From positions 20,945-84,944 of the forward strand of contig CAVYBY010000012.1 of the NCBI GenBank assembly GCA_963766935.1: a stretch of 64,000 bases of DNA, written 5' to 3'. Every line of letters begins with the position of its first letter. Positions within the stretch are counted from its first letter, which is position 1. Below are positions 14,228 through 64,000 of this stretch, piece by piece. The position numbers were made by a program, and so were the translations under genes. The notes beneath the pieces were generated by a model. The model was given only the letters and a program-made list of their open reading frames with translations, searched no databases and had not been told where the DNA came from. Origin of the DNA: an uncultured Actinomycetes bacterium. GTDB taxonomy: Bacteria > Actinomycetota > UBA4738 > HRBIN12.

Positions 14228-14611
14228 GTGGAGCGCGCGGTGATCCTGTTCGACGACGACTGCGGCTTCTGCCGCTGGTCGGTGGTGAAGCTGCAGCGCT
14301 GGGATCGCGGCCACCGGCTCCGCCCACTTGCGTTGCAGACCGAGGAGGCCACCAGCCTGCTCGGTCCGATGGATCCGCAGACCAGGATGGCCTCCTGGCA
14401 CCTGGTCACCGCCGACGGGCGCGTCCACTCCGGAGGGGATGCGGTGGCTCCCCTCGCCCGGCTCCTGCCCGCGGGAGCTCCGATCGCGGCGCTCGCGCGG
14501 ACCTTCCCGGCGGCGACCTCGGCGGCCTATCGGTGGGTGACTCGGCACCGCGACGGACTGGGTCGCGCAGTCGGCCAGCGGGCCTGTTCGGTCCAGCCGA
14601 GGAACGGCTAG
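14228..14611 (+). CDS. DCC1-like thiol-disulfide oxidoreductase family protein (DUF393)
   Basis: 127 aa with an N-terminal [12 protein letters not shown] CxxC motif. It is the only plus-strand gene between 2.1 and 32.2 kb. Confidence 0.6.
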
Positions 14612-41357: not shown

Positions 41358-41569
41358 CTCTGGCCTCCCTTCGTCGGGGGTGTGGCCCCACACTTCACGA
41401 GATCAAGGGTCGGCGCAACCCCGCGCGCCTGTCAGGTTGCCGACACGATCGATGGCGACCACCTCGTTCCTCGCTCGGCCGGATGAGGCCGAGACTGCCG
41501 AGGGGGATATAGGCGCTCTGATGACCGAGCGCGCAGAGTGTCGATGACCAGGGCAAACACCGATTGTCG

Positions 41570-41641
41570 TGGGCGCGGCAGGTTTCGAACCTGCGACCTC
41601 TTGCGTGTGAAGCAAGCGCTCTCCCGCTGAGCTACGCGCCC
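41570..41641 (-). tRNA. tRNA-Val (anticodon CAC)
   Basis: A 72-nt cloverleaf folded by hand: GGGCGCG acceptor, GCTC/GAGC D-stem, anticodon loop TTCACAC, T-loop TTCGAAA. CCA is not encoded. Confidence 0.85.
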
Positions 41642-41706
41642 GAGATTCCGGAGTCTAGCGAACGCCCGAGGCAGATCGGACGGGGAAGGAGCCGGAGGAA
41701 AGCGCA

Positions 41707-41752
41707 AGGGAAAAAGAATGACGGCGGCACGTGCCCGCGTCGTGCCGCCGTC
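41707..41752 (-). terminator. Putative intrinsic terminator between tRNA-Val(GAC) and tRNA-Val(CAC)
   Basis: A perfect 12-bp GC-rich inverted repeat (gacggcggcacg / cgtgccgccgtc) with a 9-nt loop, followed on the minus strand by ATTCTTTTTCCC. Confidence 0.5.
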
Positions 41753-41975
41753 GCCGCCGAGCCGAGTGGGCCCGGACGAAAGCGACAGAGTCTGGCACGG
41801 AAAGGCGAGGCCACGCAATACGCCGACGGTCCCTCGCTGGGGCTGACTCGAAGCGCAACGAGGGGCCCCGCGGTGGGCCAGGTTGAGACGGCTCCCGATC
41901 GACCCCACAAGACCGCATTCGCCATCCGCACGAGGAACCGAAGGGCGGCCGGGGCGGCCTCGACCCGGCGTCGCG

Positions 41976-42050
41976 TGGTGGGCGCTAGAGGATTTGAACC
42001 TCTGACCTCTTCCGTGTCAGGGAAGCGCTCTCCCCCTGAGCTAAGCGCCC
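41976..42050 (-). tRNA. tRNA-Val (anticodon GAC)
   Basis: 75 nt including the encoded CCA, with anticodon loop CTGACAC and T-loop TTCAAAT. Confidence 0.85.
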
Positions 42051-42096
42051 TTGTGACCGATCGTAGCCGATGGGGTGAGTGCGACGACCGAACTCG

Positions 42097-42168
42097 AGGC
42101 GGGGACCGGAATCGAACCGGTGTGCGGGGCTTTGCAGGCCCCTGCCTAAACCACTCGGCCACCCCGCC
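42097..42168 (-). tRNA. tRNA-Cys (anticodon GCA)
   Basis: 72 nt: GGCGGGG acceptor, anticodon loop CTGCAAA, T-loop TTCGATT, discriminator U. Confidence 0.85.
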
Positions 42169-42230
42169 GGATCTGGGTCAGTCTACGAAGAAGACAAACA
42201 GACGGCCGCCCGCAGGCGGCCGTCTCACCG

Positions 42231-42302
42231 AGCGGACGACGGGATTCGAACCCGCGACCCCCACCTTGGCAAGGTGGTGCTCTACCACTGAGCCACGTCC
42301 GC
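42231..42302 (-). tRNA. tRNA-Gly (anticodon GCC)
   Basis: 72 nt with anticodon loop TTGCCAA. The Gly-Cys-Val order matches the mycobacterial glyV-cysU-valU cluster. Confidence 0.85.
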
Positions 42303-45922: not shown

Positions 45923-46066
45923 CTGATGGTCCCCCTCTCGCTTGTTGCCGTCCGCGCGTGGCCGGGGAAGGTCACAGCCGGTGAATCACAGGGTGGTGAT
46001 TCTCACTCCAGGGTGCCGGGCTGTCAACACCATTTTCCCAACATATGGCGACATGACACATCGACA

Positions 46067-46082
46067 AACACAATATGTAGTG
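46067..46082. promoter_or_regulatory. NrdR box (14 of 16 match to acaCwAtATaTwgtgt) in the nrdR-nrdJ spacer
   Basis: The minus-strand sequence reads ccaCTACATATTGTGT. A degenerate second candidate lies about 31 bp downstream (tcgCCAtATgTtGgga, 46036 to 46051). Confidence 0.5.
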
Positions 46083-46110
46083 GTTAGCGACAATTCCTGC
46101 TGAGAGGTCC

Positions 46111-46584
46111 TCAGCGGCCGCGGCGCTTGGCCGGCTCGCGTTTCTGCAGCAGGCCGAGCTCTCGCTGGAAGTCCGTCGCGCCCTGGAAGTCCTTGTAGAC
46201 ACTGGCGAACCGCAGATACGCGACCTCGTCGAGCTTGCGGAGCTGGGAGAGCACTTCGATGCCCACCTGCTGGGAGCTGACCTCCGGCCCCTTTCGACGC
46301 AGACGCACCTCGACCCGGTCCACCAGACCGGCGACGTCGGAGACCGAAACCGGCCGGTTCTTGCCCGCCCTGGACACCCCCGCGGAGAGCTTCTCGGGGT
46401 CGAACGGCTCCTTCGAGCCGTCCCGCTTGGTCACCGTAAGGGCGATCCGCTCCGCCCGCTCGAAGGTGGTGAACCGGCGCCGGCAGCGGGCACACTCGCG
46501 CCGACGCCTGATCGCCGATCCGCCGTCGGCGGCTCGCGAATCGACGACCCGGTCCTCGTCGGCACCGCACCAGGGACACCGCAT
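46111..46584 (-). CDS. nrdR: Transcriptional repressor NrdR
   Basis: 157 aa with an N-terminal zinc ribbon (MRCPWCG...CARC), an ATP-cone and a GGGAAGG SD. Confidence 0.9.
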   Translation of the reverse strand: MRCPWCGADEDRVVDSRAADGGSAIRRRRECARCRRRFTTFERAERIALTVTKRDGSKEPFDPEKLSAGVSRAGKNRPVSVSDVAGLVDRVEVRLRRKGPEVSSQQVGIEVLSQLRKLDEVAYLRFASVYKDFQGATDFQRELGLLQKREPAKRRGR

Positions 46585-46646
46585 GAATGGACCTTCCCAC
46601 AAGATGCTGGGGACGCGGGGCACCGTAGCCGCATCATCTTGCGGCG

Positions 46647-46952
46647 TCAATCGCCGAGCGGCGCGGGTACCAGGATGACCTCGCCCTGGTGGATCCGGCC
46701 GGGATCCACGCCGTTGGCCTCGACGATCCTGGCCACCACGTCTCGCGGATCCTCGCCGGGCGCCGACCGCGATGCGATCGACCACAGCGTGTCCCCCGAG
46801 GCGACGACGACCCGCCGGGCCGCGACCGGCCGCAGGTGCCCCCGGTCCTGCGCCGCCCGGGCGCGAAGTCCCATGCCCGCGACCCAGACCATGGCGCCGA
46901 CCACCAGCCACAGGGCGATGATCCGGTCGATGCGAACACGTGTTCGGCTCAT
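46647..46952 (-). CDS. LysM domain membrane protein (Rv2719c-like, divergent from lexA)
   Basis: 101 aa from the ATG at 46952 with a TM helix plus LysM (GDTLWSIA...). The longer ORF-track call is a run-through. Confidence 0.75.
   Translation of the reverse strand: MSRTRVRIDRIIALWLVVGAMVWVAGMGLRARAAQDRGHLRPVAARRVVVASGDTLWSIASRSAPGEDPRDVVARIVEANGVDPGRIHQGEVILVPAPLGD
46933..46946. promoter_or_regulatory. LexA box CGAAC-ACGT-GTTCG lying inside codons 3 to 7 of the LysM gene
   Basis: A perfect palindrome, identical over 15 nt to the recA box. Confidence 0.65.
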
Positions 46953-46966
46953 GGCAGCATCATGCC

Positions 46967-46980
46967 CGAACGCGCGTTCG
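46967..46980. promoter_or_regulatory. LexA box CGAAC-GCGC-GTTCG in the lexA/LysM divergent promoter region
   Basis: A perfect Cheo-type palindrome. Confidence 0.7.
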
Positions 46981-46994
46981 ACGTCAAGAGGGAA

Positions 46995-47010
46995 TCGAAC
47001 GTGTGTTTGA
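46995..47010. promoter_or_regulatory. LexA box TCGAAC-GTGT-GTTTGA, 33 nt upstream of the lexA ATG
   Basis: One mismatch to TCGAAC-N4-GTTCGA. This fits lexA autoregulation. Confidence 0.65.
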
Positions 47011-47042
47011 ACGCCGGACGGCATCGTGGTAGCGTCCCGGCC

Positions 47043-47651
47043 ATGGCGGATCCCACGGCACGACAGCAGCGAATCCTCGAGTTCATCCGTGAGACGGTGC
47101 GGGATCGGGGCTACCCACCGACCGTCCGCGAGATCGGCGAGGCCGTGGGTCTCACGTCCTCGTCCAGCGTCCATGCCCAGCTCGCGAACCTCGAGCGCAT
47201 GGGGCTGCTGCACAAGGACCCAACGAAGCCCCGGACGGTCGCGCTTTCGGGCGAGCCGCGCGCCGCGTCGGTGCCGGTACCGCTCGTGGGCCGTATCGCT
47301 GCCGGCGCTCCCACCATGGCCGACCAGGAGGTCGACGAGTACCTCGCCCTGCCCGCCGGCTACGTCGGGTCGGGCGACCACTTCGCTCTGACGGTTGCCG
47401 GTGACTCCATGGTGGGCGCCGGGATCATGGATGGAGACGTCGTGGTCCTGCGGTCCCAGGACGACGCCGACGACGGCGCGATCGTGGCGGCCCTGCTTGG
47501 AGGCCCGGCCGAGGACGAGGCCACGGTGAAGCGCCTCGGCCACGACGGGGACCGGGTCATGCTCATCCCCGAGAACCCCTCGATGAAGCCCTTCGAGATG
47601 GTGGACGGCAGGATCGTGGGCAAAGTCGTGGCGGTCCTTCGTAAGGTCTGA
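47043..47651 (+). CDS. lexA: LexA repressor
   Basis: 202 aa from the ATG at 47043 (MADPTARQQRILEFI...). It has a winged HTH plus S24 peptidase with the AG cleavage site and Ser/Lys dyad. The upstream part of the ORF-track call is junk. Confidence 0.9.
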   Translation: MADPTARQQRILEFIRETVRDRGYPPTVREIGEAVGLTSSSSVHAQLANLERMGLLHKDPTKPRTVALSGEPRAASVPVPLVGRIAAGAPTMADQEVDEYLALPAGYVGSGDHFALTVAGDSMVGAGIMDGDVVVLRSQDDADDGAIVAALLGGPAEDEATVKRLGHDGDRVMLIPENPSMKPFEMVDGRIVGKVVAVLRKV

Positions 47652-47720
47652 GCCCGGCTTCCTTCGCCATACCCCGGCAACCGTCTAGGCTTCCGCCATC
47701 CCCATGCGAGGAGCCGTCAG

Positions 47721-48716
47721 ATGACACCAGCCAAGACCACGAACCTCGAACGGCAGATTCGGTCCCAGCCCGACGAGCTCGCCAAGATGCTCGACTCGTC
47801 CACGGTTCGCCAGCAGGTCTACGAGGCCGCCCAGGGCCTTCACCGAGCCCGCAGGATCTGGCTGACCGGCACCGGCACGAGCCAGCACGCGGCCGCGCTC
47901 GGCGCCTCGATGATCCAGGAGGCGGGACGAGCCGCGCACTCGGTCTCGTCGATGCAGTTCGTCGGCTGGGCTCCGATCGTGGGGCCGCAGGACGCGGTCA
48001 TCGTCATCTCCCACACCGCCGAGACGCCATACGCGCTCGCCGCCCGGGCGCTTGCGTTCGAGGCCGGTCTCGAGGTGATCATGGTGACCCGCGAAGGTGC
48101 CGGGTTCCCGTCCTCCATCGAGACCGTGCCGAAGGAGACGTCGGAGACCTACACGGTGAGCTATACGACCGCCGTGCTCGCGCTTGCGATGCTCGCTCGG
48201 GAGCTGGGTGCGGAGAGCATCACCGACGAGGCCCTGGCGCTCGTGCCCGGCGCGGTCAGGAATGCCATCGAAGGCTCCGGCGTCGAGACGATCCAGGCCC
48301 CCGAACGGATGCTGACGTTCGTCGGCGAGGGACCCTCGGCGATCACCGCACGAGAGGGGGCCCTCAAGGTCCGAGAGGGCGCGAGACAGCTGGCGGAGGG
48401 GTTCGACGCCGAGTACCTGCTGCACGGCTCGGCGGTACCGCTCACCTCGAAGGACCGGCTCGTGGCCCTGAGCCCGCCGGACAAGGACGGTCTCGTGGAA
48501 GGACTGGTCACGGCGGCGGAGGCCGAGGGCATCCCCGTCTCCCGGGTACGCGAGCCGGCGCCGCTGCCGCTTCACCTGGCGCAGATTCCGCTCGTCGCCC
48601 GGCTGCAGCTCCTTGCGCTCCGACTCGCCGTTGCCGGCGGACAGGATCCGGACACGGTCATCACGGGTCACTGGGCGGACAAGGGGCTCTGGTCGATCGG
48701 CATGCCGACGGCATAG
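47721..48716 (+). CDS. SIS (sugar isomerase) domain protein, GlmS-C/AgaS-like
   Basis: 331 aa with two SIS modules and a GAGGAG SD. Confidence 0.65.
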   Translation: MTPAKTTNLERQIRSQPDELAKMLDSSTVRQQVYEAAQGLHRARRIWLTGTGTSQHAAALGASMIQEAGRAAHSVSSMQFVGWAPIVGPQDAVIVISHTAETPYALAARALAFEAGLEVIMVTREGAGFPSSIETVPKETSETYTVSYTTAVLALAMLARELGAESITDEALALVPGAVRNAIEGSGVETIQAPERMLTFVGEGPSAITAREGALKVREGARQLAEGFDAEYLLHGSAVPLTSKDRLVALSPPDKDGLVEGLVTAAEAEGIPVSRVREPAPLPLHLAQIPLVARLQLLALRLAVAGGQDPDTVITGHWADKGLWSIGMPTA

Positions 48717-48732
48717 CCGCCCGAGAGACGGC

Positions 48733-50091
48733 TCAGCCGTCGGCGGCGGCGTGGTCCGGTGAGACCCGGGTCGCGAACGGCCGGATGGCGGCCAGCTCCC
48801 TCAGGCCCACCCGAGCCCGGACTCGCGTGCCCGCTGGCTCGGCCTCGGCCGATTCGACCTCCGCCCGGTCGTAGAGCATCGCGACGAGATCCCCGCGCGC
48901 CCACGGGATCAGCGCTTCGATCGCGACGGGCGGGTTCGGGATCGCCCCAAGGACGGCCCGGAGCAGACCCTCGGTTCCCTCCCCGGAGAGTCCCGAGACG
49001 GAGATGGACCCCGGGTGTCTCCGGGCGAGGCGCGCGCGCTCGGGACCCCCGACCTGATCCACCTTGTTGAGCGCGAGCACCTCGGGCACGTCGCCGGCGC
49101 CGATCTCGCCGAGGACCCGACGGACCGCCTCGACCTGCTCCTCCAGCTGTGGCGACGAGGCATCCGCGACGTGGAGCACGAGGTCCGAGCGCGTCACCTC
49201 GTCGAGGGTGGACCGAAACGCCTCCACCAGATCGTGCGGGAGCTTGCCGACGAAACCGACCGTGTCCGAGATGACCACGCGCCGGCCGCCCGGAAGGGTC
49301 AGCCGTCGGGCGGTGGGATCGAGGGTGGCGAAGAGCTGGTCGGCGACGACCACCTCCGAGCTCGTGAGCTGGTTCATCAACGTCGACTTCCCGGCGTTCG
49401 TGTAGCCGGCGATCGCGACCTGGGGCACGCCGGAGCTCTGGCGCCGAGCGTTCTTCAGATCGCGGGACTTCGAGAGCGAGTCGATGTCGCGGCGAAGGCG
49501 CGAGATCCGCCTGCGGATGTGCTGGCGGTCGACTTCCATCTTGGTCTCGCCCGGCCCACGGGTTCCGATGCCGCCGCCCAGCCGGCTCATGGCCTCGCCC
49601 CACCCACGAAGCCGCGGAAGCAAGTAGTTGAGCTGCGCCAGCTCCACCTGCGCCTTGCCCTCCCGGCTGCGTGCGTGCAGCGCGAAGATGTCCAGGATCA
49701 GAGCTGTCCGGTCGACCACCTTCACGTTGAGCCGCTCTTCCAGCGACCGAAGCTGTCCGGGCGTCAGCTCCTCGTCGAGAATCACGGCCTGCGCGCCGGT
49801 CCGGTGGATCTCGCGGTGCAGCTCGTCCACCTTGCCGCGGCCGACCCAGTACTGGGCGTCGGGCTCCGATCGGCTCTGCACGACCCGGGCGACCGGCTCG
49901 GCGCCGGCGGAGTCGGCCAACGCCGCGAGCTCGTCGAGGTCCTCCTCGCGAATCCCCGGGCCGATCCCGACGAGAACGGCGCGCTCACGCACCATCGGCC
50001 GCCACGTGGCCGCGAGCGGCGACTCGAGGGTCCGCGGAGCAGGCGCTCGGTGCTCCGCCACGTGATCAGGCCATGGCCGAGCCGTGCTCAC
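48733..50091 (-). CDS. hflX: GTPase HflX
   Basis: G domain (GYTNAGKST, DTVGF, NKVD) plus N-terminal HflX domain. The alternative ATG at 49995 avoids a 26-nt overlap with dapD. Confidence 0.9.
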   Translation of the reverse strand: MSTARPWPDHVAEHRAPAPRTLESPLAATWRPMVRERAVLVGIGPGIREEDLDELAALADSAGAEPVARVVQSRSEPDAQYWVGRGKVDELHREIHRTGAQAVILDEELTPGQLRSLEERLNVKVVDRTALILDIFALHARSREGKAQVELAQLNYLLPRLRGWGEAMSRLGGGIGTRGPGETKMEVDRQHIRRRISRLRRDIDSLSKSRDLKNARRQSSGVPQVAIAGYTNAGKSTLMNQLTSSEVVVADQLFATLDPTARRLTLPGGRRVVISDTVGFVGKLPHDLVEAFRSTLDEVTRSDLVLHVADASSPQLEEQVEAVRRVLGEIGAGDVPEVLALNKVDQVGGPERARLARRHPGSISVSGLSGEGTEGLLRAVLGAIPNPPVAIEALIPWARGDLVAMLYDRAEVESAEAEPAGTRVRARVGLRELAAIRPFATRVSPDHAAADG

Positions 50092-50899
50092 GCAGCAGCT
50101 CGTTCAGCCGGAGCTTCTCGTCGGTCCCCTCGCTCCGGTAGGCGATGATCAGGCCGCATGGGAGGCCGTAGCTGCCGGCCGGGAACTCGCGTGGCCGGGT
50201 GCCCGGCACCACGACGGCTCCGGCGGGTACCTCGCCGCGGACCTCGACGGGAGTCGTCCCCGTCACGTCGATCACCGGCGTGCTGGCGGTCAGGACCGTT
50301 CCCGCCCCCAGCACGGCCCGGGCCCCGACGCGGACGCCCTCGACGACGACGCAGCGCGAACCCAGGAAGCAGCCGTCCTCCACGATCACGGGCGCGGCCT
50401 GCACCGGCTCGAGCACGCCGCCGATCCCCACGCCGCCGGACAGATGCACGTCCGCACCGACCTGCGCGCACGAGCCGACCGTGGCCCATGTGTCGACGAG
50501 CGTGCCCGGGCCGATCCAGGCCCCGACGTTCACGTAGCTGGGCATCAACACGACGCCCCGTGAGAGGAAGGACCCGAAGCGCGCGGCCGCCGGCGGCACC
50601 ACGCGCACGCCGAGCCCCGCGTACCCGTGCTTGAGCGGCAGCCGGTCGTGGAACTCGAGCGGGCCGGCCTGCGTCGTCTCCAGAGCCCGAACGCGGAAGT
50701 ACAGGAGCACCGCTTCCTTGAGCCACGCGTGCACGACCCAGCCGTCCCCGTCCGGCTCGGCGACGCGAACCTGTCCCCGGTCGAGCAGACCGATCGTTTC
50801 CTCCACCGCTTCGGCATCGATCGACGATGCCCCGCCGGAGCTCTCCGCGCCGGCCCACGCGGCCTCGATCCGCCCCGCCAGCTCGGCGTGAGACGTCAT
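50066..50899 (-). CDS. dapD: 2,3,4,5-tetrahydropyridine-2,6-dicarboxylate N-succinyltransferase
   Basis: 277 aa from the ATG at 50899 with left-handed beta-helix hexapeptide repeats. It makes an ATGA overlap with the dapC stop. Confidence 0.85.
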   Translation of the reverse strand: MTSHAELAGRIEAAWAGAESSGGASSIDAEAVEETIGLLDRGQVRVAEPDGDGWVVHAWLKEAVLLYFRVRALETTQAGPLEFHDRLPLKHGYAGLGVRVVPPAAARFGSFLSRGVVLMPSYVNVGAWIGPGTLVDTWATVGSCAQVGADVHLSGGVGIGGVLEPVQAAPVIVEDGCFLGSRCVVVEGVRVGARAVLGAGTVLTASTPVIDVTGTTPVEVRGEVPAGAVVVPGTRPREFPAGSYGLPCGLIIAYRSEGTDEKLRLNELLREHGSAMA

Positions 50900-52065
50900 G
50901 CGCGCACCCCGGCCAGAACGCCGTCCAGCAGGGCCGCAGCCCGCCGGCAGGCATCGAGCGAGGGCACCGCCGCAAGCCGCACGTACCCCTCCCCCTCCGG
51001 ACCGAAGAACGAGCCGGGCGCGACGACGACGCCGGCCCGCTCGAGCAGGTCGATCGCCCACGCCAGTGAGCTCCGGTCATCGGGGACGCGCACCCACAGG
51101 TAGAACGTGGCGGCGCCCCCGGCCACCTCGACCCCGTGCCGCTCGAAGACGTCGAGGAACAGACGCCGCTTGGCCGCGTACGCGGCGCGATGCCGTTCGA
51201 CGTGCTCCTCGTCGTTCCACGCGGCGATCGACGCGCGCTGGACGAACTCCTGCGGCGTGACGCCGACGCTCGGCCGAAGACGACGAAGCGCCCCGATCAG
51301 ATCCGGATCGCCCGCGAGGAAGCCCGACCGGTAGCCGGTCATGTGCGAGCGCTTGCTGAGCGTGTTGAGAACGAGCACGCCGGAGAGATCGCCGACCTGA
51401 AGCGCCGACGCGGGCGGCTCGTCGAACCACAGCTCGCTGTACGCCTCGTCGGACGCAAGGACGACGTCGTGCGCGCGGCATCGCTCGGCCGCCGCGGCGA
51501 ACAGATCGAGCGGAGCCACGGCGCCGGTCGGGTTGTTCGGGTAGTTGAGCCACAGCACGGCGCTCCGCCGCCAGTTCTCCTCGTCCACGGCGTCCAGATC
51601 GGGAAGGAAGCCCCGCTCCGCCGCGAGCGGAATCCGGACGACCTCGCCGCCCAAGTACCGGGCCCCGCGCTCGGGGATCGCGTAGCCGGGGGCCGTCACG
51701 ATGACGCGGTCCTTGCCGGCGGCGGGATCCAGGAGCGCGCCGGCGAGGGAGAAGATCGGCTCCTTGCTGCCGAGGGTCGGCAGCACGTGACGATCCGGGT
51801 CCAGCTCGACGTCGAACCGCCGCCCCACCCAGGCGGCCACGGCGTTCCGCAGCTCCGGAAGCCCGGCCGCGCGGGGGTACGACGAGACCGGCTCGATCGC
51901 GGCGGCGAGGGCCTCGCGGATGAACGCGGGCGTCTCGTCGCGGGGATCGCCGATCCCGAGATCGACGACTTCGCGGCCCGCCTCGAGCGCGGCTTGCTTC
52001 CGGCGATCGAGCTCCTCGAACGGGTACGGCTCGCTTGCTCGGATGCCGGGTGAAAGATGGACCAC
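50896..52065 (-). CDS. dapC: Succinyldiaminopimelate aminotransferase-like class I PLP aminotransferase
   Basis: About 389 aa from the GTG at 52065, 2 nt after the dapE stop, with the PLP lysine motif SKRSHMTG. The assignment rests on its position between dapE and dapD. Confidence 0.7.
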   Translation of the reverse strand: MVHLSPGIRASEPYPFEELDRRKQAALEAGREVVDLGIGDPRDETPAFIREALAAAIEPVSSYPRAAGLPELRNAVAAWVGRRFDVELDPDRHVLPTLGSKEPIFSLAGALLDPAAGKDRVIVTAPGYAIPERGARYLGGEVVRIPLAAERGFLPDLDAVDEENWRRSAVLWLNYPNNPTGAVAPLDLFAAAAERCRAHDVVLASDEAYSELWFDEPPASALQVGDLSGVLVLNTLSKRSHMTGYRSGFLAGDPDLIGALRRLRPSVGVTPQEFVQRASIAAWNDEEHVERHRAAYAAKRRLFLDVFERHGVEVAGGAATFYLWVRVPDDRSSLAWAIDLLERAGVVVAPGSFFGPEGEGYVRLAAVPSLDACRRAAALLDGVLAGVRA

Positions 52066-52067
52066 GA

Positions 52068-53183
52068 TCAGGCTCCCATCGCCCGCGTCCCGGTCAGGAA
52101 CGCATGCAACACGTCGTAGGAGCGCACCAAGGCTTCCGCGCCGACGCGCTCGTCGTCGCGATGAGCGTACCGCGGGTCCCCGGGGCCGAAATTGATCGCG
52201 GCCACGCCGGCGGCTGCGAAGTCGGCGACGGGCGTCCAGGCCTGCTTCGGGCCGACGGGCAGGTCCCCGGCGGCCCGAAGCCGCCTGACGAGCGGGTGGC
52301 TCGCGACGACGGGGGCGGGCGGTGAGTTCCCCAGGATCTCGATCTCCGCCCGGGGGTCGCCGAGCAGGCTCCCGAGCCTCGCCTCGGCGTCCCCGGGCGC
52401 GACGTTCGGTGCATACCGCAGGTTGACGTCCGCCTCGACGACGTCGGGGACGACGTTTGTCGAGGCGCCGCCCCGGATGGACGTCACGCTGGCTACCTCG
52501 CGGTAGACGAGCCCGTCGATCTCGACGTCCACCGGTGCGAGCTCCGCCAGCGGCGACAGGATCTGGATCGCGGCGTGGATCGCGTTCTCGGCCAGCCACG
52601 GTCGCGCCGTGTGACCGGCGGTCCCCCGCACCCGGACCCGCGCGTTGAGGTTGCCGAGACAACCGACCTCGGCGGCGTTGTCCGTCGGCTCCATGACGAT
52701 CGCGAGATCGGCCGCCCGAAGCGCCGCGGACCGTTCGAGCATCGGCGCGAGAACCCCATGTGGCGCCGGCAGCTCCTCGCGGCCGAACAGGACGACGCCC
52801 AGGTCGAGCCCGGTCGGAGGTTCCGCGAGATCCCGCACCAGCTCGACGATCACGGCCACCGCGCCCTTCATGTCCGCCGCTCCGCGTCCCGTCACATGGC
52901 CGTCCTCGATCCGGCCCGCGGCGGCGCCGGCGATCGGAACCGTGTCGACGTGTCCGGCCAGGAGCACCAACGGCACGCCCGTGCGACGGTGGGGCAGGGT
53001 CGAGAGCACGCCGTCGCCGCGCTCGACCGGACGGAGCCACGCCGTCTCGAGAAGCCCGCCGAGGTGCGACAGGATGCCGGACTCGTCTCCGCTCTCGGAG
53101 GGAATGTCGATCAGCTCGAGCGTCCGCCGTTGCAGCCGCTCGGCGAGCGAGGCGGCTTGATCCGCAGACGCCCCCCTAGGCAC
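52068..53183 (-). CDS. dapE: Succinyl-diaminopimelate desuccinylase (M20 peptidase family)
   Basis: 371 aa from a GTG start that overlaps the dapF stop by 8 nt (GTGCCTAG). It has metal-binding His/Asp/Glu motifs (AGHVDTV, GAADMKG). Confidence 0.8.
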   Translation of the reverse strand: MPRGASADQAASLAERLQRRTLELIDIPSESGDESGILSHLGGLLETAWLRPVERGDGVLSTLPHRRTGVPLVLLAGHVDTVPIAGAAAGRIEDGHVTGRGAADMKGAVAVIVELVRDLAEPPTGLDLGVVLFGREELPAPHGVLAPMLERSAALRAADLAIVMEPTDNAAEVGCLGNLNARVRVRGTAGHTARPWLAENAIHAAIQILSPLAELAPVDVEIDGLVYREVASVTSIRGGASTNVVPDVVEADVNLRYAPNVAPGDAEARLGSLLGDPRAEIEILGNSPPAPVVASHPLVRRLRAAGDLPVGPKQAWTPVADFAAAGVAAINFGPGDPRYAHRDDERVGAEALVRSYDVLHAFLTGTRAMGA

Positions 53184-54039
53184 GGCGTCCGGTCCCGAGG
53201 TCGAGATCGATGGTCCCCTCGAACACGGCGTCGACCGGGCCGCTCAGCGAGACCGAGCCGTCGGCTCCCCGCTCCACGTCCAGCCGGCCGCCCGGGAACC
53301 GGACCCACGTCCGCGCGGGTGCCACGCCCATCTCCTGGGCGGCCACGGAGACCGCGCACGCCCCCGAACCGCACGAGAGCGTCTCGCCGGACCCGCGCTC
53401 CCACACGCGGGCCTCGAGCCCACCGCCCGCGGCGCGCGCGAACTCGACATTCGCACCCTGCGGGAAGAGCGGCAGATGCTCCAGCGCCGGTCCCAGGCGT
53501 TCGACGTCGATCTCGGCCGGATCCTCCTCGACGAAGAGCACGAGATGTGGATTGCCCATCGACAGGGCGCTCGCCACCACCGTCCGTCCATCCAGCTCGA
53601 ACGGCTGCGCGAGGAACGTCTCCCCCGGTGGGCCGCTCATCGGGACCGCGGCGCGCGCGAACGCGGGGGAACCCATGCCGGCCGTGACGACGACCTCGCC
53701 ATCGACCGACGGCGAGACGGTGACGCGCGAGATCCCCGCCGGCGTCACCACCGCGAAGCCGTCGGTGCCGGCGAGCCCCCGGTCGTGCGCCAGCCGGGCG
53801 AGGCACCTGATGCCGTTGCCGCAGGTGCCGGCCGGCGAGCCATCGGCGTTGCGGTAGTCCATGAGGAATCCCTCCGCGGCGGGGGCGACCCGGATGACCC
53901 CGTCCGCGCCGATGCCGGTCCGGCGATCGCACAGCGCCGCCGCTCTTTCGGGACTCACCTCGAGATGACCGTCCAGATCGAGCAGGAGCACGAAGTCGTT
54001 CCCGCACGCCTCGTACTTCCAGAACGGCTCGATGCTCAC
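53176..54039 (-). CDS. dapF: Diaminopimelate epimerase
   Basis: 287 aa from the GTG at 54039 (GTGA overlap with the miaA stop). It has both catalytic Cys motifs (CGNDF, GSGACA). The 405-aa ORF-track version borrows a miaA out-of-frame segment as leader. Confidence 0.85.
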   Translation of the reverse strand: MSIEPFWKYEACGNDFVLLLDLDGHLEVSPERAAALCDRRTGIGADGVIRVAPAAEGFLMDYRNADGSPAGTCGNGIRCLARLAHDRGLAGTDGFAVVTPAGISRVTVSPSVDGEVVVTAGMGSPAFARAAVPMSGPPGETFLAQPFELDGRTVVASALSMGNPHLVLFVEEDPAEIDVERLGPALEHLPLFPQGANVEFARAAGGGLEARVWERGSGETLSCGSGACAVSVAAQEMGVAPARTWVRFPGGRLDVERGADGSVSLSGPVDAVFEGTIDLDLGTGRRA

Positions 54040-54959
54040 GCGGTCTCCAGGTACTCGAGCATCGCACCGACGGCCTCCGGCGCACCGGCGGGCCCGACGT
54101 CGAACCAGCGGATGCGCGGATCCCGCCGGAACCAGGACATCTGGCGCCGCGCCAGGTTTCGCGTCCGAGCCTGCGTCCTCGTCACCGCCTCCTCGAGCGG
54201 GAGCCGGCCCGCGAGATGTTCCGCGAGCTCTGCGTACCCGATCGCCTGTGTCGAGGTCAGCCACCCGCCGAACCCGCGAGCCACGAGCCGCCGGACTTCG
54301 TCGAGCCAGCCGGCCGCGAACATCGACCGGACCCGGTCCTCGATTCGCGCCGCGCAGGACCTCGGGCGGCATCCGGATCCCCGCGACCCGCACCCGCTGC
54401 GGCGGGGAATCGCTCCCACGCCGTGGCGAACGAGCTGAACGGCGCGCCGGTCACCTGGACGACCTCGAGCGCCCGCACGATCCGGCGCAGGTTGGCGGGC
54501 TCGATCTTGGCGGCGGCCACCGGGTCGATCGCCTCCAGCCGGAGGTACATCGCCTCGACGCCGTGGGCCTCGGCGTCCCGCTCCAGGCCGGCTCGGATCC
54601 CGGCATCCTCGGGCGGGAAAGACCAGGTCGTCGACGAGCGCGCGGAAGTACAGACCCGACCCGCCCACGAGAAGCACCCGGCGGCTCCTGGCCTGCACAT
54701 CGGCGAGCACGTCGCGCCCGATCGCCTGGAACCTCGAAACGGTGAACCGCTCGGTCGGCTCCGCGAGGTCGAGCAGGTGATGCGGAATCCGAGCGCGCTC
54801 GGCCGGCGTCGGCTTGGCCGTTCCCACGTCCATCCCGCGGTAGACGAGCATCGAGTCGACGCTCGCGATCTCGGCCCCGAGCGCCTGCGCGAGGACGACG
54901 GCCGCGGAGGTCTTGCCCGACGCGGTCGGTCCGACGAGCGCCAGGAGCGGTCCGGTCAC
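54036..54959 (-). CDS. miaA: tRNA dimethylallyltransferase MiaA. The ORF is continuous, but the central ~85 codons are encoded in the two other frames, consistent with three compensating +1 insertions.
   Basis: The N-terminus (GPTASGKT...RALVDDLVF) and C-terminus ([22 protein letters not shown]...) are in frame A. The conserved middle ([63 protein letters not shown]) is in frame +1, and [14 protein letters not shown] is in frame +2. The shift sites are at runs TTT (about 54619), CCCC (about 54405) and CGCGGCGCG (about 54350). Confidence 0.75.
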
Positions 54960-54966
54960 GGCCGAG

Positions 54967-56309
54967 TCAGGTCGCGACGGCCGCCGGGACGGCGCCGAGC
55001 AGATGGTGCGGGGCCGCGCTCACGATCCGCGCCTCGACAAAGGTGCCCGGCGCGAGCGACTCCTCCAGATGCACGATCCGGTTGGTCCGCGTCCGGCCCT
55101 GTGTCGAACCCGCCTTCTTCCCGGCGCCCTCGACCAGGACCTCGACGACCGAGCCCACCTGCTCGAGGTTCCGCTCCAGCGAGATCCGCTCCTGCGCCGC
55201 CACCAGGCGATCGAACCGCTCCTGCACGACCGGTTTGGGGATCTGCTCGTCGAACGAGGCCGCGCGCGTGCCGGGCCGGGGCGAGTACTGGAAGAGATAG
55301 GCGCTGTCGAACCTCGCTCGCTCGACGACGTCGAGCGTGTCGGCGAAGTCTTCCTCGGTCTCGCCCGGGAACCCGACGATGACGTCGGTCGAGACGGCGA
55401 CCTCCGGGATCGCCGCCCGGATCCGTTCGAGCCACGACAGGTATCGCTCGCGGCGATACGAGCGCTGCATCGAGCGAAGGATCCGGTCCGATCCCGACTG
55501 CAGCGGGAAATGGATGTGCTCGCACACCTTCTCGCACTCGGCCATCGCGTCGATCACGTCGGGCGTGAAGTCGTGGGGATGCGGCGACGTGAACCGGATC
55601 CGACGGATGCCGTCGACCTCGTCTACACGCCGGAGCAGTTCGGCGAAGAGCGGGCGGCTGGGACGCGCCGTCGACGCTCACGTCCCGCCCGTAGGTGTTG
55701 ACGTTCTGCCCGAGCAGCGTCACCTCGAGCACTCCCTGGGCGGCGAGACCCTGGACCTCGGCGAGGATGTCGCCGATGCCGCGCGAGCGCTGCGGTCCCC
55801 GCACGAGCGGCACGATGCAGAACGTGCAGGCGTTGTCGCACCCGACGGCGACGGAGACCCAGGCACGATTGGAATCGCCGCGGGCGGCCGGGAGCGCGCT
55901 CGGGAACGTCTCGGTGTACTCGCGCACGTCCATCTGCGGACCGTCTTCCTCGGCCATGCGGAGGAGGTCGAGAAGCTGCGGGAGTGCGTGGGTTCCCACG
56001 ACGACGTCGACCCACGGCGCCCGCTGCTGGATCAGGCCCTGATCCTTCTGAGCCAGACACCCGGCCACCACGATCCGCAGGTCGGGCCGCCGGTCCTTCA
56101 GCGGCTTGAGATGTCCCAGGTTGCCGTACAGCTTGTTGTCGGCGTTCTCGCGGATCGCGCAGGTGTTGAGCACCACCACCCGCGCGTTCTCGCAGGTCCT
56201 CGGCCGGCGTCATGCCGTCCCCGATCAGCAAACCGGCGATGCGCTCCGAATCATGCTCGTTCATCTGGCACCCGAAGGTGCGGATGAGGAATCCCCCCGT
56301 CACGCTCAC
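54967..56309 (-). pseudogene. miaB: tRNA-2-methylthio-N6-dimethylallyladenosine synthase MiaB, split into three frames by two +1 frameshifts
   Basis: The MTTase N-domain (IRTFGCQMNEHDSE) is in ORF 55623 to 56309. The radical-SAM core ([11 protein letters not shown]...CDNACTFC) is in ORF 54956 to 56179. The TRAM end ([13 protein letters not shown]...) is in ORF 54967 to 55557. The shifts lie at about 56195 and about 55650 (a CCC run). The total length is 3n+2. Confidence 0.8.
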
Positions 56310-57842
56310 CTCGCGTACTCGGTCGAGCGCGTCTCGCGAACCACCGTGATCTTGATCTGCCCCGGGTATTGGAGCTCCTCCTCCACGGTCTTGGCGATAT
56401 CGCGCGCGATCACCTGCGCCTGGAGATCGTCCACGTCGTCGGGCTTCACCATGACCCGGACCTCGCGGCCGGCCTGCATCGCGAACACCTTCTCGACGCC
56501 GGGCTGCGCGCTGCAGATCTCTTCGAGGCGTTCCAGACGCCGCACGTAGGTCTCGAGCGACTCGCGCCGGGCGCCCGGCCGGCCACCGGAGATGTGGTCG
56601 GCGATCTGCGCGAGCACGGCGTCGACGGAACGCTGCTCCACTTCGCCGTGGTGAGACTCGATGCAGTGCACCACCTCCGGCGACTCCTTCAGCCGCCTGG
56701 CGATCTCGGCGCCGATGATGGCGTGCGACCCCTCGATCTCGTGTGTGACCGCTTTGCCGATGTCATGCAGGAACGCCCCGCGTTTGGCGACGGAGGGGTC
56801 AAGACCCAGCTCCGAGGCCAGCGCCGACGCGATGTGCGCCGACTCCACCAGGTGCTTCAGAACGTTCTGGCCGTACGACGTCCGGTATTGGAGGCGCCCG
56901 AGCAGCTTGACGAGCTCGGGGTGCAGGTCGGTCAGGCCCACCTCGGCAACGGCGTTCTCGCCGGCACGACGAACCTGCTCGTCCAGGTCTTTGAGCGACC
57001 GCTGGTGGATCTCTTCGATGCGCGCCGGGTGGATCCGTCCGTCCGCGACCAGCTTCTCCAGCGTCATCCGGGCCGCCTCGCGCCGAACCGGGTCGAAGCA
57101 CGACAGGACCACGGCCTCCGGGCGTGTCGTCGATGATCAGGTTGACGCCTGTGGCCGCCTCGAACGCGCGGATGTTGCGGCCCTCACGCCCGATGATCCG
57201 GCCCTTCATGTCCTCGCTCGGGAGCGTGAAGACGCTGACCGTCGACTCCGCCGTCTGCTCCGACGACACCCGCTGGATCGCGATCGTGACGATCTTTCGC
57301 GCCCGCTCCTCGCTCTCCTCGCGTGCCCGCTGCTCGATCTCGCGGACCTGGACCATCGCGTGGCGCTTGGCCTCGTCGACGGTCTGCGCCATCAGCTGGT
57401 CGCGGGCCTCGGTCGAGGTCATCTGCGCGATGCGCTCCAGCTCGGCCGCGTGCGTCGCGGCCGAGGCATCAACCTGCTCCTGCGCGCCCGACGAGCGTGC
57501 GGTCACGCTCGTCCAGGTCGCGCGGCTCGCTCCTCCAGCTTCTGCGCCCTGGCGACGTAGCTCTTCCTCGGACTGGGTGATCCTTCGCTCCAGCCGGGCA
57601 ACCTCGTCCCGGCGGAGCTTCAGGTCCTCATCGGTCTCCTTGCGTGCGGCGGCGGCATCGGCTCTGGCGTCGACCAGGGCCTGGCGGCGCGTATCGGCCG
57701 CCTCCTGCTCCGCCTCGACCAGCAGCTCTTCGGCGCGGACCTCCAGGCTTTGGGTATTGGAGGCGGCGATCGTCTTCCAGACGAAGAACCCGACGACGGC
57801 ACCCAGGATGACGCCGCCAACGCCCACCAGTGCCTCTTGCAT
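56306..57842 (-). pseudogene. rny: Ribonuclease Y (TM helix, coiled-coil, KH and HD domains) with at least four +1 frameshifts
   Basis: The KH motif GRIIGREGRNIRAFE and the HD domain are in different ORFs, with the junction at about 57127 (a GG run). The N-terminal coiled coil reads naturally only as frame 0 (RRQGAE), then +1 (KLEERAAR), then +2 (DLDERDRTLVGRA), then frame 0 (QEQVD...). The length is 3n+1. Confidence 0.8.
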
Positions 57843-57848
57843 CCGTTC

Positions 57849-57868
57849 CTCCCACGATTCCGTGGGAG
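57849..57868 (-). other. 8-bp perfect hairpin (CUCCCACG-GAAU-CGUGGGAG) whose 3' arm carries the GGGAGG Shine-Dalgarno of rny
   Basis: Read directly from the sequence. The stem ends 6 nt before the rny AUG. Confidence 0.35.
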
Positions 57869-58104
57869 AGGACCCCTGCGGGCCCCGTGTTCAGGCGCGA
57901 CGTTGCGGCGCGACGAACGGAAGGTGCGGGAACGGTCAACCCACCTGGGGCCGTACCGCCTCCGTCCTCAGTCGTTGTCGTCTGGTCGGGAATGATCTCC
58001 GTCACAAGCCTTCTGCTCGAACTCGGGGTGTGCGTAGGCGTTTCCTCTCCGTTTCGGGCCATGGTAAGCGGCCCCGAGACGAGAGACAAGCGCCGGATGG
58101 CCGA

Positions 58105-58619
58105 TCAGGCCTCCGAATCGACCCCGCGATCGATCTCCAGGGCCGACCTGGCGGCCCGCCGGGCCATCTCGGGTCCGTACCCACGCCGCAGCAGGAAGGA
58201 GGTCAGCCGGCGGAAGGCTACGGCCGGCTCCAGGGAGCCCATCCGTTTGGCCCGCCGGGCGGCGAGGTCCCGCGCCCGTTCCTCCTCGTCGTCCCCGAGC
58301 GACGCGAGCGCCCCCGCCGCAACCGCCGGCGTGACCCCGCTTCGGGCCAGCACCGAGCCCACCAGGCGCCGTCCCGACCCGCGGGAACCGACCTCGTGTT
58401 CGATCACCCGCCGGGCGAACGCCTCGTCGTCCACGAGGCCCACCCCCTCGAGCCGCTCGAGCTCGCCCTCGACTTCCTCCGCGTCGAAGCCCGCCCGCAG
58501 GAGGCGCGTCTCGAGCTCCCGGCGGCTGCGCGGCCGGACGGCGAGCAGCCCGAGTGCGCGATCGTGACAGCTGCGAGCGCCGGGCCGTTTCGCCGTCGTC
58601 TTCCCGCCGAATTGGCCCG

Positions 58620-58623
<4 letters not shown>
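58105..58623 (-). CDS. recX: Regulatory protein RecX
   Basis: 172 aa from the GTG at 58623 (GTGA overlap with the recA stop). It has three-helix RecX repeats and is intact. Confidence 0.8.
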
Positions 58624-60837
<2,214 letters not shown>

Positions 60838-60964
60838 CCTACCGATCCTCTCCCCACCGATCGACGCACGGTACCGGCCGGGTCCGACAAAGTTACACCC
60901 GTGTGATCCGGCCCGCTGTTCGACCCGGCGTCCCGGCCGGCCCGAGGGCCAGCCCGCAGGCTAG

Positions 60965-60980
60965 TCGAACACGTGTTCGG
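60965..60980. promoter_or_regulatory. LexA box TCGAAC-ACGT-GTTCGG, 128 nt upstream of the recA start
   Basis: A perfect Cheo-type palindrome read directly from the sequence. Confidence 0.7.
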
Positions 60981-60994
60981 CCGCAAGCACCCCG

Positions 60995-61584
60995 TCACCC
61001 GCCCTCGAACGGGGCCACCAGCAGTGGCTCGTAGACGGGCGCCGGGCGGCGGAGGTGGCTTTGGAACAGGACCACGCGATCCACGCGAAACGGCTCCGAG
61101 GCGAGCGGCGTCAGGGCGAACTCGCTCGGGAAGGGCGATCGGCGGATCGCTCCTCGCGACCGTCGAGGTGCGCATGGAACGGCCGGGACTCCGGTGGGAA
61201 CTCGGCCGCGAGGGCCGTCCGAGACGGCTCCGGCTAGCGACGCCAGCGCCCCGCCGTCCGGCGATGCCCGCCCAAAGGACGCGAGCGCCGGCGCGCCGAC
61301 GGAAACGCGCCGAGGCCATCGATCCTCGCCTCGAACGGCGCCGTCCGGCGGGCAACGGCCGCCACCCGCTCCTCGACCCACGGACGCAACCGCGGCCACG
61401 TCCGCCCGAGGAACACCAGGGTCACGTGCCAGTTCTCCTCGGGCGGCCACCGAGCCTTGGGGAACCGCTCGCGCCACGGTTCGGTCGCCGAGGCGACGGC
61501 TCGCTTTGCGTCCTCGGGAATCTCGACCGCCACGAACAGACGGAGCGGAGGCGCCTCCGGCCGCGCGGACCGGTCGCGGGCCAT
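60995..61584 (-). pseudogene. thpR: RNA 2',3'-cyclic phosphodiesterase (ThpR/LigT, 2H family) with two +1 frameshifts
   Basis: The N-terminal part (LRLFVAVEIPEDAK...NWHVTLVFLG) is in ORF 61234 to 61584. The RAGARVLWAGIAG segment is in ORF 60834 to 61355. The C-terminal part ends at 60995. The ATG at 61584 makes an ATGA overlap with the cinA stop, and the length is 3n+2. Confidence 0.6.
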
Positions 61585-62878
61585 CAGGGCTGCTTCGCAT
61601 CCTGGTCGAACCACCAGGTCGGGCCCCGCTGCGGACGAACGAGCCCGCCGGTGAGATGCCGGCGGACGAGATCGAGCGCGGCCTGCTCGGACCAGGACGT
61701 GACCAGCTCCCGGTTCGCCGGCGCCGACAGGGACCGCGTGAAGGTCTGCTCGCCGCCGTCGAGTGCGAGCCAGACCGTGCCCGGCTCCGCTCCCCCGTGC
61801 GGCTCGGGCCCGGCGGCCCCGGTCACGGCGACCGCCACATCCGCCGCGAAGAGCGCGGCGCGCTCCGGCCGCCATCTCGAGGGCGCAGGCCTCGCTCACG
61901 ACCCCGTGCTCCTCGATCGTCGACGCGGCCACACCGAGCACCTCCTGCTTGGCCTGAGCCGAGTACACGACCGCCGATCCGCGGAAGTAGGCGGACGCCC
62001 CGGGCACCGACGTCAGCCGTGCCGCGATCCGCCCGCCGGTGAGCGATTCCGCCGCGGCGACCGTCTTCGACTGCTCGCGCAGCAGCCGGCCCACCACTTC
62101 CTCCAGCCGTTCGTCGGTGGTGCTGAAGACCGATGTCGCCGAGCCGGTCCGCGATGACCTCCACGAGCGGTGCGATCAGCGCGTCCGCCTCCTCGGCCGA
62201 CGGGGCCTTCGCGGTCAGCCGGATCTTGACCTCGCCGGCGCCCGCCAGGTAGGCGATCGTCGGGTTGCGCCCCGCCTCGAACAGGTCCTCGAGCACGCGC
62301 GCCACGGCCGACTCCCCCACCCCGGTACATCGCAGCACGCGGGAACGAACCACCGCCGGACCGGCGAGCGCCGCCAGCTCGGGCAGCACCGTTCCCTCCA
62401 TGATCTCGCGCATCTCCGCCGGGACCCCGGCCATCGCGTAGAGCCGCACGCGGCCGATCTCGACGGCGAGCCCGGGCGCCGTGCCGATCACCGGTCGGAT
62501 GTACCGAGCGCCCCGCGGGACGTCCGCCTGGCGGAGATTGTTCTCGGGCATCGCGCGGCCCATCCCGGAGAAGCGCTCGCGGAGCATGGCTTCGAGCTCC
62601 GGCTGCCGCTCCATCGGCGCCGCGAGCACGCCGGCGATCGCATCCCGCGTCAGATCGTCGCCGGTCGGGCCGAGCCCGCCCGTCACGAGGACGACATCCG
62701 CGCGCTCGATGGCGCGGCGGAGGATCTCTTCGATGCGCGGCTGGTTGTCGCCGACGACCGTCTGGTAGACGACGTCGACCCCGACGTCCGCCAGCCGCTG
62801 CGACATCCACTGCGCGTTCGTGTTCGCGATCTGCCCGAGCAGCAGCTCCGTGCCGACCGCGACGATCTCGCTCTTCAC
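61584..62878 (-). pseudogene. cinA: Competence/damage-inducible protein CinA (MoCF-binding N-domain plus CinA C-domain) with two +1 frameshifts
   Basis: The N-domain is in ORF 61823 to 62878 (GTELLLGQIANTNAQ...). The CinA-domain start (TVAAAESLTGGRIAARLTSVPGASAYF) is in the 61234 to 62097 frame. The C-terminus (AVAVTGAAGPEPHGGAEPGTVWLAL) is in ORF 61584 to 61838. The length is 3n+2. Confidence 0.75.
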
Positions 62879-62906
62879 GCCCGGTCACGTCCCGCAGGCA
62901 TCACGG

Positions 62907-63620
62907 TCACGCCCCATCGGTGCACGCCACCGGGTCCTCGCCCGGCGCGTAGCGCATACAGAACGAACCTCGGATGCCCGCGGTGTCGACGGCGACGCCG
63001 TTGACCTCCACCTCCGCGGCCGATCCCTCCTCCAGGAAGACGGAGACCTCCCTCGCGCCCTCGAGCGACCGGCTCTCCCCCGGTTGCAGCGCGAACGTGG
63101 TCGTGGTGCCGTCGACGACGATCCGCGCCTGGACCTCGCGGATCCCCTTGAGGACCACGTCGACCGGTTCCGTCGACGCGGCCGAGGTACGCGGCGTCGA
63201 TGCCGGCACGTCCGCCGGACGAGGGGCCGAGCTCCGCCGGCCCACCGCACCGATCGCGACGAAGACGACGAGGAGCGCGGCGGCGGCGATGAGCAGGAAC
63301 CGTTGGTTGTCGCGGATCCTGGTGGCGGCGATCGCGCGCTCGATCGCCCCGACCTTCGCGGGTGGTGGCGGCGGGGTCGGCGCGTCGGCGCGCCGGCCGT
63401 AGGCGGCGAGCACGCGGTCGGGGTTCACGCCGAGGTATGCCGCGTAGGTACGAAGGAGCCCCCGGACATAGACCTCGCCCGGAAGCCCGGCGAAGTCTTC
63501 GCGTTCCAGGGCCTCCAGCTGCTCTGCCCGGAGGCGAGTATCGCGTGCCGCCTCCTGGATCGTGACCCCCCGGACGAGGCGGGCCTTCCTGAGCGCCGGC
63601 CCGACCCCGTTCGCTCGGTC
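62907..63620 (-). CDS. Helix-turn-helix (XRE) / DUF4115 RodZ-like membrane protein
   Basis: It has an HTH region (RGVTIQEAARDTRLRAEQLEALEREDF...VYVRGLLRTYAAYLG), a Pro-rich linker, a TM helix and a C-terminal DUF4115-like beta domain. The start is approximate because the ORF-track N-terminal extension looks non-coding. Confidence 0.6.
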   Translation of the reverse strand, partial: DRANGVGPALRKARLVRGVTIQEAARDTRLRAEQLEALEREDFAGLPGEVYVRGLLRTYAAYLGVNPDRVLAAYGRRADAPTPPPPPAKVGAIERAIAATRIRDNQRFLLIAAAALLVVFVAIGAVGRRSSAPRPADVPASTPRTSAASTEPVDVVLKGIREVQARIVVDGTTTTFALQPGESRSLEGAREVSVFLEEGSAAEVEVNGVAVDTAGIRGSFCMRYAPGEDPVACTDGA

Positions 63621-63718
63621 ACGTGCGGTTCCTCCGGCCAACCCGGGGATGATAGCGCCCGGGGTGCCGGGACCGGCTAGCCTTCCGCCGTGTCCCGACC
63701 GGTCGTCCGTGGTTCCCG

Positions 63719-64000
63719 CGTGCTCTTGCGTCCGCTGACCGTCGCGGACGAACGAGAGTTCCTCGAACGCGTCCGGGTCTCGCGGCGGCTCCATCGTCCG
63801 TGGTCGTATCCCCCGGACACACCCGAGCGCTTTCGCGCCTTTCTCCAGCGCTACCGGGCCCCGACCACGAAAGGCTTCGCCGTCTGCCGCCGGGAGGACG
63901 GCGCCATCGTCGGGTGGTTCGGTCTCTCCCAGATCTTCCACGGCGCGTTTCGGAACGCCTTCCTGGGCTACTACGCCTTCGAGCCCTATGCGGGGCAGGG
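63719..64000 (+). CDS. GNAT family N-acetyltransferase, truncated at the 3' end by the window edge
   Basis: Translation from the GTG at 63719 gives VLLRPLTVADEREFLERVRVSRRLHRPWSYPPDTPERFRAFLQRY...GWFGLSQIFHGAFRNAFLGYYAFEPYAGQ, which is RimJ/RimL-like. Confidence 0.55.

Follow-up and report, generated by a model that had tools for sequence, protein, structure and literature searches.

A 7.8-kb block within a stretch of 64,000 nucleotides from an uncultured Actinomycetes bacterium (assembly GCA_963766935.1, contig CAVYBY010000012.1, positions 20,945 to 84,944; referred to as the window) contains about 37 single-base insertions and deletions (indels), which interrupt miaA, miaB, rny, recX, the intein-bearing recA, thpR and cinA. 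Our data indicate with high confidence that this block is a local consensus-quality artefact of a long-read-type metagenome assembly and not a case of gene loss. The genes are almost certainly normal in the organism, including recA with its intein, and only the deposited sequence is wrong. The surplus bases are missing from a close relative at the sites that it covers, their removal restores the proteins, and the signature that they leave is specific to a sequencing technology. An earlier note, which had been made from the bare sequence, had proposed such a local consensus-quality problem on the basis of at least 17 frameshifts. This proposal is now supported by the relative, by the canonical form of the reconstructed proteins and by the presence of the same signature in metagenome-assembled genomes (MAGs) derived from Nanopore reads.

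Frameshifts were located by protein-to-DNA alignment with a purpose-written aligner that allows frameshifts, using four to five independent guide proteins per gene. The guides were taken from related loci fetched with a RecX query, the closest of which are uncultured Actinomycetota MAGs with 56-62% RecX identity. This aligner was used because tblastn and tblastx by themselves misplaced or missed closely spaced hops and gave many off-frame hits in the high-GC sequence. Event positions are accurate to within a few bases. In total, 34 insertions and three deletions were found, so that the number of frameshifts claimed earlier was borne out and enlarged. Three events lie in miaA, two in miaB, four in rny, one in the tail of recX, 19 in the RecA intein, five in thpR and two in cinA, and at least one additional event is intergenic. 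Every hop in miaA, miaB, rny, thpR and cinA is a +1 hop caused by one surplus base, and the four to five guides are concordant on each of them (five guides in the case of miaA and thpR). The previous counts for miaA, miaB, rny and cinA agree with these values, while thpR has five hops instead of two and the intein about 19 instead of at least four. Likewise, the claim that all resolved hops are +1 holds for the 34 insertions but not for three deletions in the intein. The lengths of miaA, miaB, rny, recA, thpR and cinA (924, 1337, 1537, 2203, 590 and 1295 nucleotides) leave the same remainders modulo 3 as had been reported. In miaA, the net change of +3 leaves the open reading frame (ORF) open, with about 90 codons read out of frame. 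Some of the shifts are closely spaced, with three of those in rny falling within 62 nucleotides and the five insertions in thpR within 167 nucleotides. The gene recX, which had been considered intact, is affected as well. Its conserved tail carries on in the next frame to about 58074, and about 12 C-terminal residues are cut off by the inserted T listed in Table 1.

Table 1. Positions of the error block and of the affected genes and regions in the window
Feature	Position	Strand	Remarks
Error block	54351-62134	.	holds all ~37 single-base indels; flanks clean
miaA (tRNA dimethylallyltransferase)	54036-54959	-	inserted bases ~54351 (C), 54399-54406, 54617-54623 (G at 54617)
miaB (UPF0004, Radical_SAM, TRAM domains)	54967-56303	-	inserted bases ~55660-55663 (A), ~56193 (C)
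rny (RNase Y)	56306-57842	-	inserted bases ~57118 (C), 57484-57492 (G), 57523-57532 (C), 57545-57554 (C)
rny-recX intergenic spacer	57977	.	surplus G relative to L081; beyond polarising by protein evidence
recX	58074-58623	-	called ORF 58105-58623; inserted T at 58112 leads to premature stop
recA precursor	58620-60822	-	N-extein 60217-60822, C-extein 58620-59120
RecA intein with LAGLIDADG_2 homing endonuclease	59121-60216	-	Cys1 to His-Asn, then Ser
thpR (LigT-type RNA 2',3'-cyclic phosphodiesterase)	60995-61584	-	inserted bases 61287, 61262, ~61220, 61164, ~61127
cinA (MoCF_biosynth, CinA_KH, CinA domains)	61584-62878	-	inserted bases ~62134, ~61854

The G+C content of the window is about 70% throughout, without a compositional break at the block. 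Since the G+C content at the third codon position (GC3) is about 90%, the coding frame can be read straight from composition. In a sliding frame plot, the high-GC3 phase switches within genes between 54 and 62 kb, and in a three-frame translation of the minus strand conserved peptides run on from one frame into the next. A seven-state codon-position hidden Markov model was used to scan for coding segments that end without a stop codon. Seven such segments were found inside the block and none in 1-54040 or 62135-64000. Consistent with this, no frame breaks were detected in the remaining 56 kb of the window, and frameshift-aware alignment of five control genes flanking the block gave no internal hops. 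An apparent hop at about 54047-54049, at the junction of miaA and dapF, was dismissed as an end-of-alignment artefact, as the relative described below has no indel there. The block makes up 12% of the window and contains every event. Given an even spread of the 37 events over 64 kb, the probability that every one of them lands in the block would be about 1e-34. The earlier note was therefore right that the frameshifts are confined to one block in an otherwise clean window, but the extent it had given (54200-62900, 8.7 kb) had to be revised to the narrower one in Table 1.

After removal of the surplus bases, the Pfam profiles are covered end to end in MiaA, MiaB, RNase Y, ThpR, CinA and RecA with its intein. 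The reconstructed MiaA spans positions 2-243 of the 243 positions of IPPT, MiaB matches UPF0004, Radical_SAM and TRAM, RNase Y matches RNase_Y_N, KH and HD, ThpR matches LigT_PEase and 2_5_RNA_ligase2, and CinA matches MoCF_biosynth, CinA_KH and CinA. The reconstructed RNase Y has 510 amino acids, and nearly all of the 120 best homologues in the database are equally long. No in-frame stop codons were present in the reconstructed frames, and no sign of relaxed conservation was seen in the reconstructed proteins, which show normal levels of identity to relatives, such as 87% between the C-terminus of RNase Y and that of L001, one of the related loci. RNase Y deviates at eight near-invariant columns, including the run QEQVD just past the third hop. 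We read these deviations as lineage-specific and not as errors because the DNA of this run is common to the relative L081.

A comparison with a related genome, which had been suggested as a check on the frameshifts, was possible with L081 (ENA ERZ1700618, contig_EHDLDABF_26442). This sequence, reached via a cluster neighbour, shows 91% DNA identity to the window over 44347-59694 and lacks the surplus base at all hops covered. These are the three sites in miaA (54351, 54399 and 54617), the two in miaB (55663 and 56193), the four in rny (57118, 57484, 57523 and 57545), the one in recX (58112) and nine sites in the intein, for which the comparison extends over 59121-59694. Conversely, the base missing from the window at about 59301 is present in L081. 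Coverage by L081 ends at 59694, and the events in 59695-62134 rest on the protein-guided alignment. L081 also bears single-base indels of its own, mostly insertions, at other positions along its whole length. A difference at 58369/58446 in recX, for example, was rejected as a window error and assigned to a pair of errors in L081. The gene calls of L081 are fragmented in hflX, dapF, miaB, rny and recX, and about 985 bp that match 52191-53175 of the window are absent, either by deletion or by misassembly. A RodZ search did not find an orthologue of the RodZ-like protein in L081, and a literature search for ERZ1700618 gave no hits. The proteins of the window are singletons in the databases and come from one NCBI/ENA contig of 134,499 bp. 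As the broken products, such as a CinA fragment of 351 amino acids whose tail is out of frame and a RecX truncated to 172 amino acids, are already in the public record, the shifts were not introduced after deposition.

Taken at face value, the deposited sequence carries the shifts, and the organism would recently have lost miaA, miaB, rny, recA, thpR, cinA and the tail of recX in a local shower of insertions. In order of magnitude, the 7.8 kb would match a tract of repair synthesis or recombination, and a single error-prone tract of this kind of about 8 kb is a conceivable source. Furthermore, with L081 there is a second record that has indels at this locus. Nevertheless, we consider a real loss very improbable, and a still smaller probability is given to the specific version in which an insertion-prone synthesis tract of about 8 kb, centred on for example the recA intein, inactivated RecA, RNase Y, MiaA/MiaB, ThpR and CinA together. 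In a decaying gene, frameshifts would be accompanied by stop codons, radical substitutions or truncations, but here no other decay is visible, as the reconstructions are full-length, lack stops and match Pfam from end to end. Reductive genomes such as that of Mycobacterium leprae hold clustered pseudogenes, and the window resembles them in that neighbouring housekeeping genes are interrupted by frameshifts. However, decay of the Mycobacterium leprae type also involves stops, substitutions, deletions and lost conservation, whereas the damage in the window consists of single-base indels only. In addition, known bacterial indel spectra are run-associated, and natural indels of this kind would occur with both signs. 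The observed imbalance of 34 insertions to three deletions (binomial p = 1e-7) does not agree with this, nor do the sites themselves. Of the 18 insertions that could be polarised at the DNA level against L081, 12 do not duplicate a neighbouring base and are thus unlike natural slippage. In this respect the earlier note, according to which several sites fall in short homopolymers, applies to a minority of the polarised sites. G or C was inserted in 14 of the 18 cases, which tracks the genome composition. A fixed simultaneous loss of RecA and RNase Y is also implausible in itself. Finally, the indels of L081 lie at different positions, and the same signature is found in unrelated Nanopore MAGs and is missing from short-read MAGs, as described below.

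The nearly uniform sign of the shifts could also suggest that the genes are expressed in spite of them, by programmed +1 ribosomal frameshifting, transcriptional slippage or RNA editing. In three sets the frame is indeed regained within a short distance, as with the three closely spaced shifts in rny and the three shifts in miaA. A likeness exists to prfB, where a programmed +1 frameshift at one conserved motif site is needed for the full protein. In contrast to the single site and defined motif of prfB, the window has about 37 unconserved sites, some of them intergenic. No motif, slippery sequence or homopolymer tract is common to the sites. They are unshifted in the related loci L001-L006 and in L081, and the frameshifts that do occur in L003 and L081 lie elsewhere. 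Insertions also occur outside of genes, and in the intein they stand alongside deletions. Such a recoding system is not known from Actinomycetota. Expression through recoding is contradicted by the lack of conservation and is considered extremely improbable.

The densest part of the block is the RecA intein, which as deposited is not encoded in a single frame. It forms a 1,096-nucleotide insert between GVMFG and SPETTTGG of RecA, and its reconstruction has 361 codons. An alignment guided by the intact intein of L004 places about 16 insertions and three deletions in this region, with a net change of +13. The insertions are at 60141, 60113, 60085, 60060, 59914, 59826, two near 59732, ~59528, 59427, ~59383, 59337, 59317, 59212, 59199 and 59193, and the one-base deletions are at ~60002, ~59931 and ~59301. 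Two '+2' steps in the alignment were each entered as two insertions, and one of these two steps is confirmed by L081 (59199 and 59212). The exteins are free of indels but lie in different frames. The reconstructed RecA matches the Pfam families RecA and RecA_C, and the junctions of the reconstructed intein read GVMFG/CFSM... and ...VVVHN followed by Ser. The LAGLIDADG_2 domain is covered from 1 to 168 of 168 positions with 110 bits (cut-off 25 bits), and Intein_splicing is matched with 29 bits, which is under its cut-off of 35.8 bits. The insertion site is presumably the Mycobacterium leprae-type RecA intein site of Actinomycetota. With the RecA inteins of this phylum it has in common the ...KIGVMFG/SPETTTGG site, Cys1, the C-terminal His-Asn, Ser at +1 and the LAGLIDADG_2 domain, and it differs from them in being broken by about 19 indels as deposited. 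The intein is predicted to be functional only once these indels are corrected. Homologous inteins were found at the same recA site in L004, L015, L039, L050, L051 and L081, so the allele is widespread in these soil Actinomycetota. It is intact in L004, L039, L050 and L051.

A crude frameshift detector was applied to 60 related loci of high GC content. For isolates and short-read MAGs it returned 0-4 events per 20 kb and in most cases 0-2, a rate near its false-positive level. Several Nanopore MAGs of the Microflora Danica project gave 32, 14, 10, 8, 8 and 7 events per 20 kb, with 68 events scored as +1 and 12 as '-1 or two +1'. These MAGs result from Nanopore-only assembly followed by a single round of polishing by Medaka (PMC12313526). 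Frameshift-like breaks were very dense in L042 (MFD04935.bin.2.18), L066, L036 and L037, where they are mostly +1 and reach 32 in 20 kb. Direct checks were made for three of the Nanopore MAGs, L003, L002 and L015. In L003, cinA, rny and miaB hold three +1 shifts, and L002 has seven insertions within 1.1 kb with clean flanks, about half of which are not homopolymer extensions. The +1 bias and the local bursts in L002, L003, L015, L042 and others are like those in the window. L015 (MFD01721.bin.1.111) is a Nanopore-only assembly with a homologous RecA intein. It has 12 events, 11 scored +1 and one +2, which are limited to recA and its intein (L015 7850-9335), whereas rny and miaB have full-length ORFs in this MAG. 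Only one further event, at 14545, was flagged by the detector in this locus. By comparison, frameshifts are absent from the intein locus in all four short-read MAGs that carry this intein (L004, L039, L050 and L051). The suggestion that the intein-bearing recA triggered the problem hence gains indirect support from L015, next to the 19 events in 1.1 kb of the window.

Within the block the events are distributed unevenly. In the 1.1 kb of the intein, 19 events stand against five expected (p = 2e-6), whereas the exteins have none in 1.1 kb, again with five expected (p = 0.006). The event density climbs with the local divergence from L081 (Spearman 0.41, p = 0.002), and errors are densest at the most variable parts, namely the RecA intein, the C-terminal half of thpR and the coiled coil of rny. 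It seems most likely that the contig was assembled from Nanopore reads only, with Flye and Medaka or similar programs. The consensus would then have spuriously gained about 34 single bases and dropped three over the 7.8 kb. Because the errors are densest where the locus varies most and missing from the most conserved parts, the exteins, we infer that few reads of the own strain, or a mixture of reads, went into the consensus here. This might be caused by relatives in the same sample with a different intein or with divergent alleles. An artefact of another kind, such as a chimeric join, a hybrid assembly in which one or a few raw long reads were used to close a gap, or the collapse of two strains, is rather unlikely but deserves consideration, as it would explain the sharp boundaries and the clean flanks. 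The correlation of error density with divergence would also fit a consensus of mixed haplotypes. On the other hand, the overall error rate in the block, at about 0.5%, is lower than raw reads would give, the error-free stretches of 0.5-0.8 kb inside the block (the exteins and the C-termini of rny and miaB) speak against filling from a single read, and a change in composition across the block is lacking.

Errors of this type are well described for Nanopore assemblies, in which indel and frameshift errors depend on coverage and are more frequent in soil data (PMC9262707; PMC13087279). As in MAGs with such errors, which are recognised by truncation scores of the IDEEL type, single-base indels split conserved genes in the window, and the sites are missing from independent sequences. 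Several points nevertheless weigh against a long-read consensus artefact. Classic Nanopore errors favour homopolymers, which are also what the literature stresses, whereas two thirds of the sites in the window are not homopolymer extensions. The errors are also limited to one 7.8-kb block in otherwise clean 64 kb, and the uneven density inside the block is explained by inference only. As L081 is itself a noisy assembly, each difference between it and the window was polarised by protein homology. No genome of the same species was found in the databases searched, where the best identities are at most 79% for RNase Y (protein database), at most 62% for RecX (species-representative genomes) and the 91% of L081 at the DNA level.

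Some further observations were made in the window. The stop codon of cinA overlaps the first base of the start codon of thpR at 61584, which suggests an operon in which translation of the two genes is coupled. At 41569-42302 on the minus strand, an otherwise non-coding stretch of 1.4 kb contains a cluster of four tRNA genes (Val-CAC, Val-GAC, Cys-GCA and Gly-GCC). At 20338-20691, a stretch of 350 nucleotides has an atypical codon-position composition and is called as plus-strand by the frame model. It sits within an ORF of 751 amino acids on the minus strand (18989-21244), which is intact and unbroken, and it may be a low-complexity or linker region.

Insertion errors pile up locally at an intein-bearing recA in the window and likewise in L015, an independent assembly known to be Nanopore-only, which provides a small methodological lead. 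Intein-bearing recA may be a recurrent hot spot of consensus errors in long-read MAGs and possibly a systematic weak spot of their consensus. Some public species-representative MAGs are heavily affected by frameshift-like breaks. For the organism itself the result is biologically ordinary, and its value lies in the curation of the record. Automatic pipelines would call the core genes of the block pseudogenes or missing, and such miscalls distort completeness estimates, metabolic inference and recA-based phylogeny.

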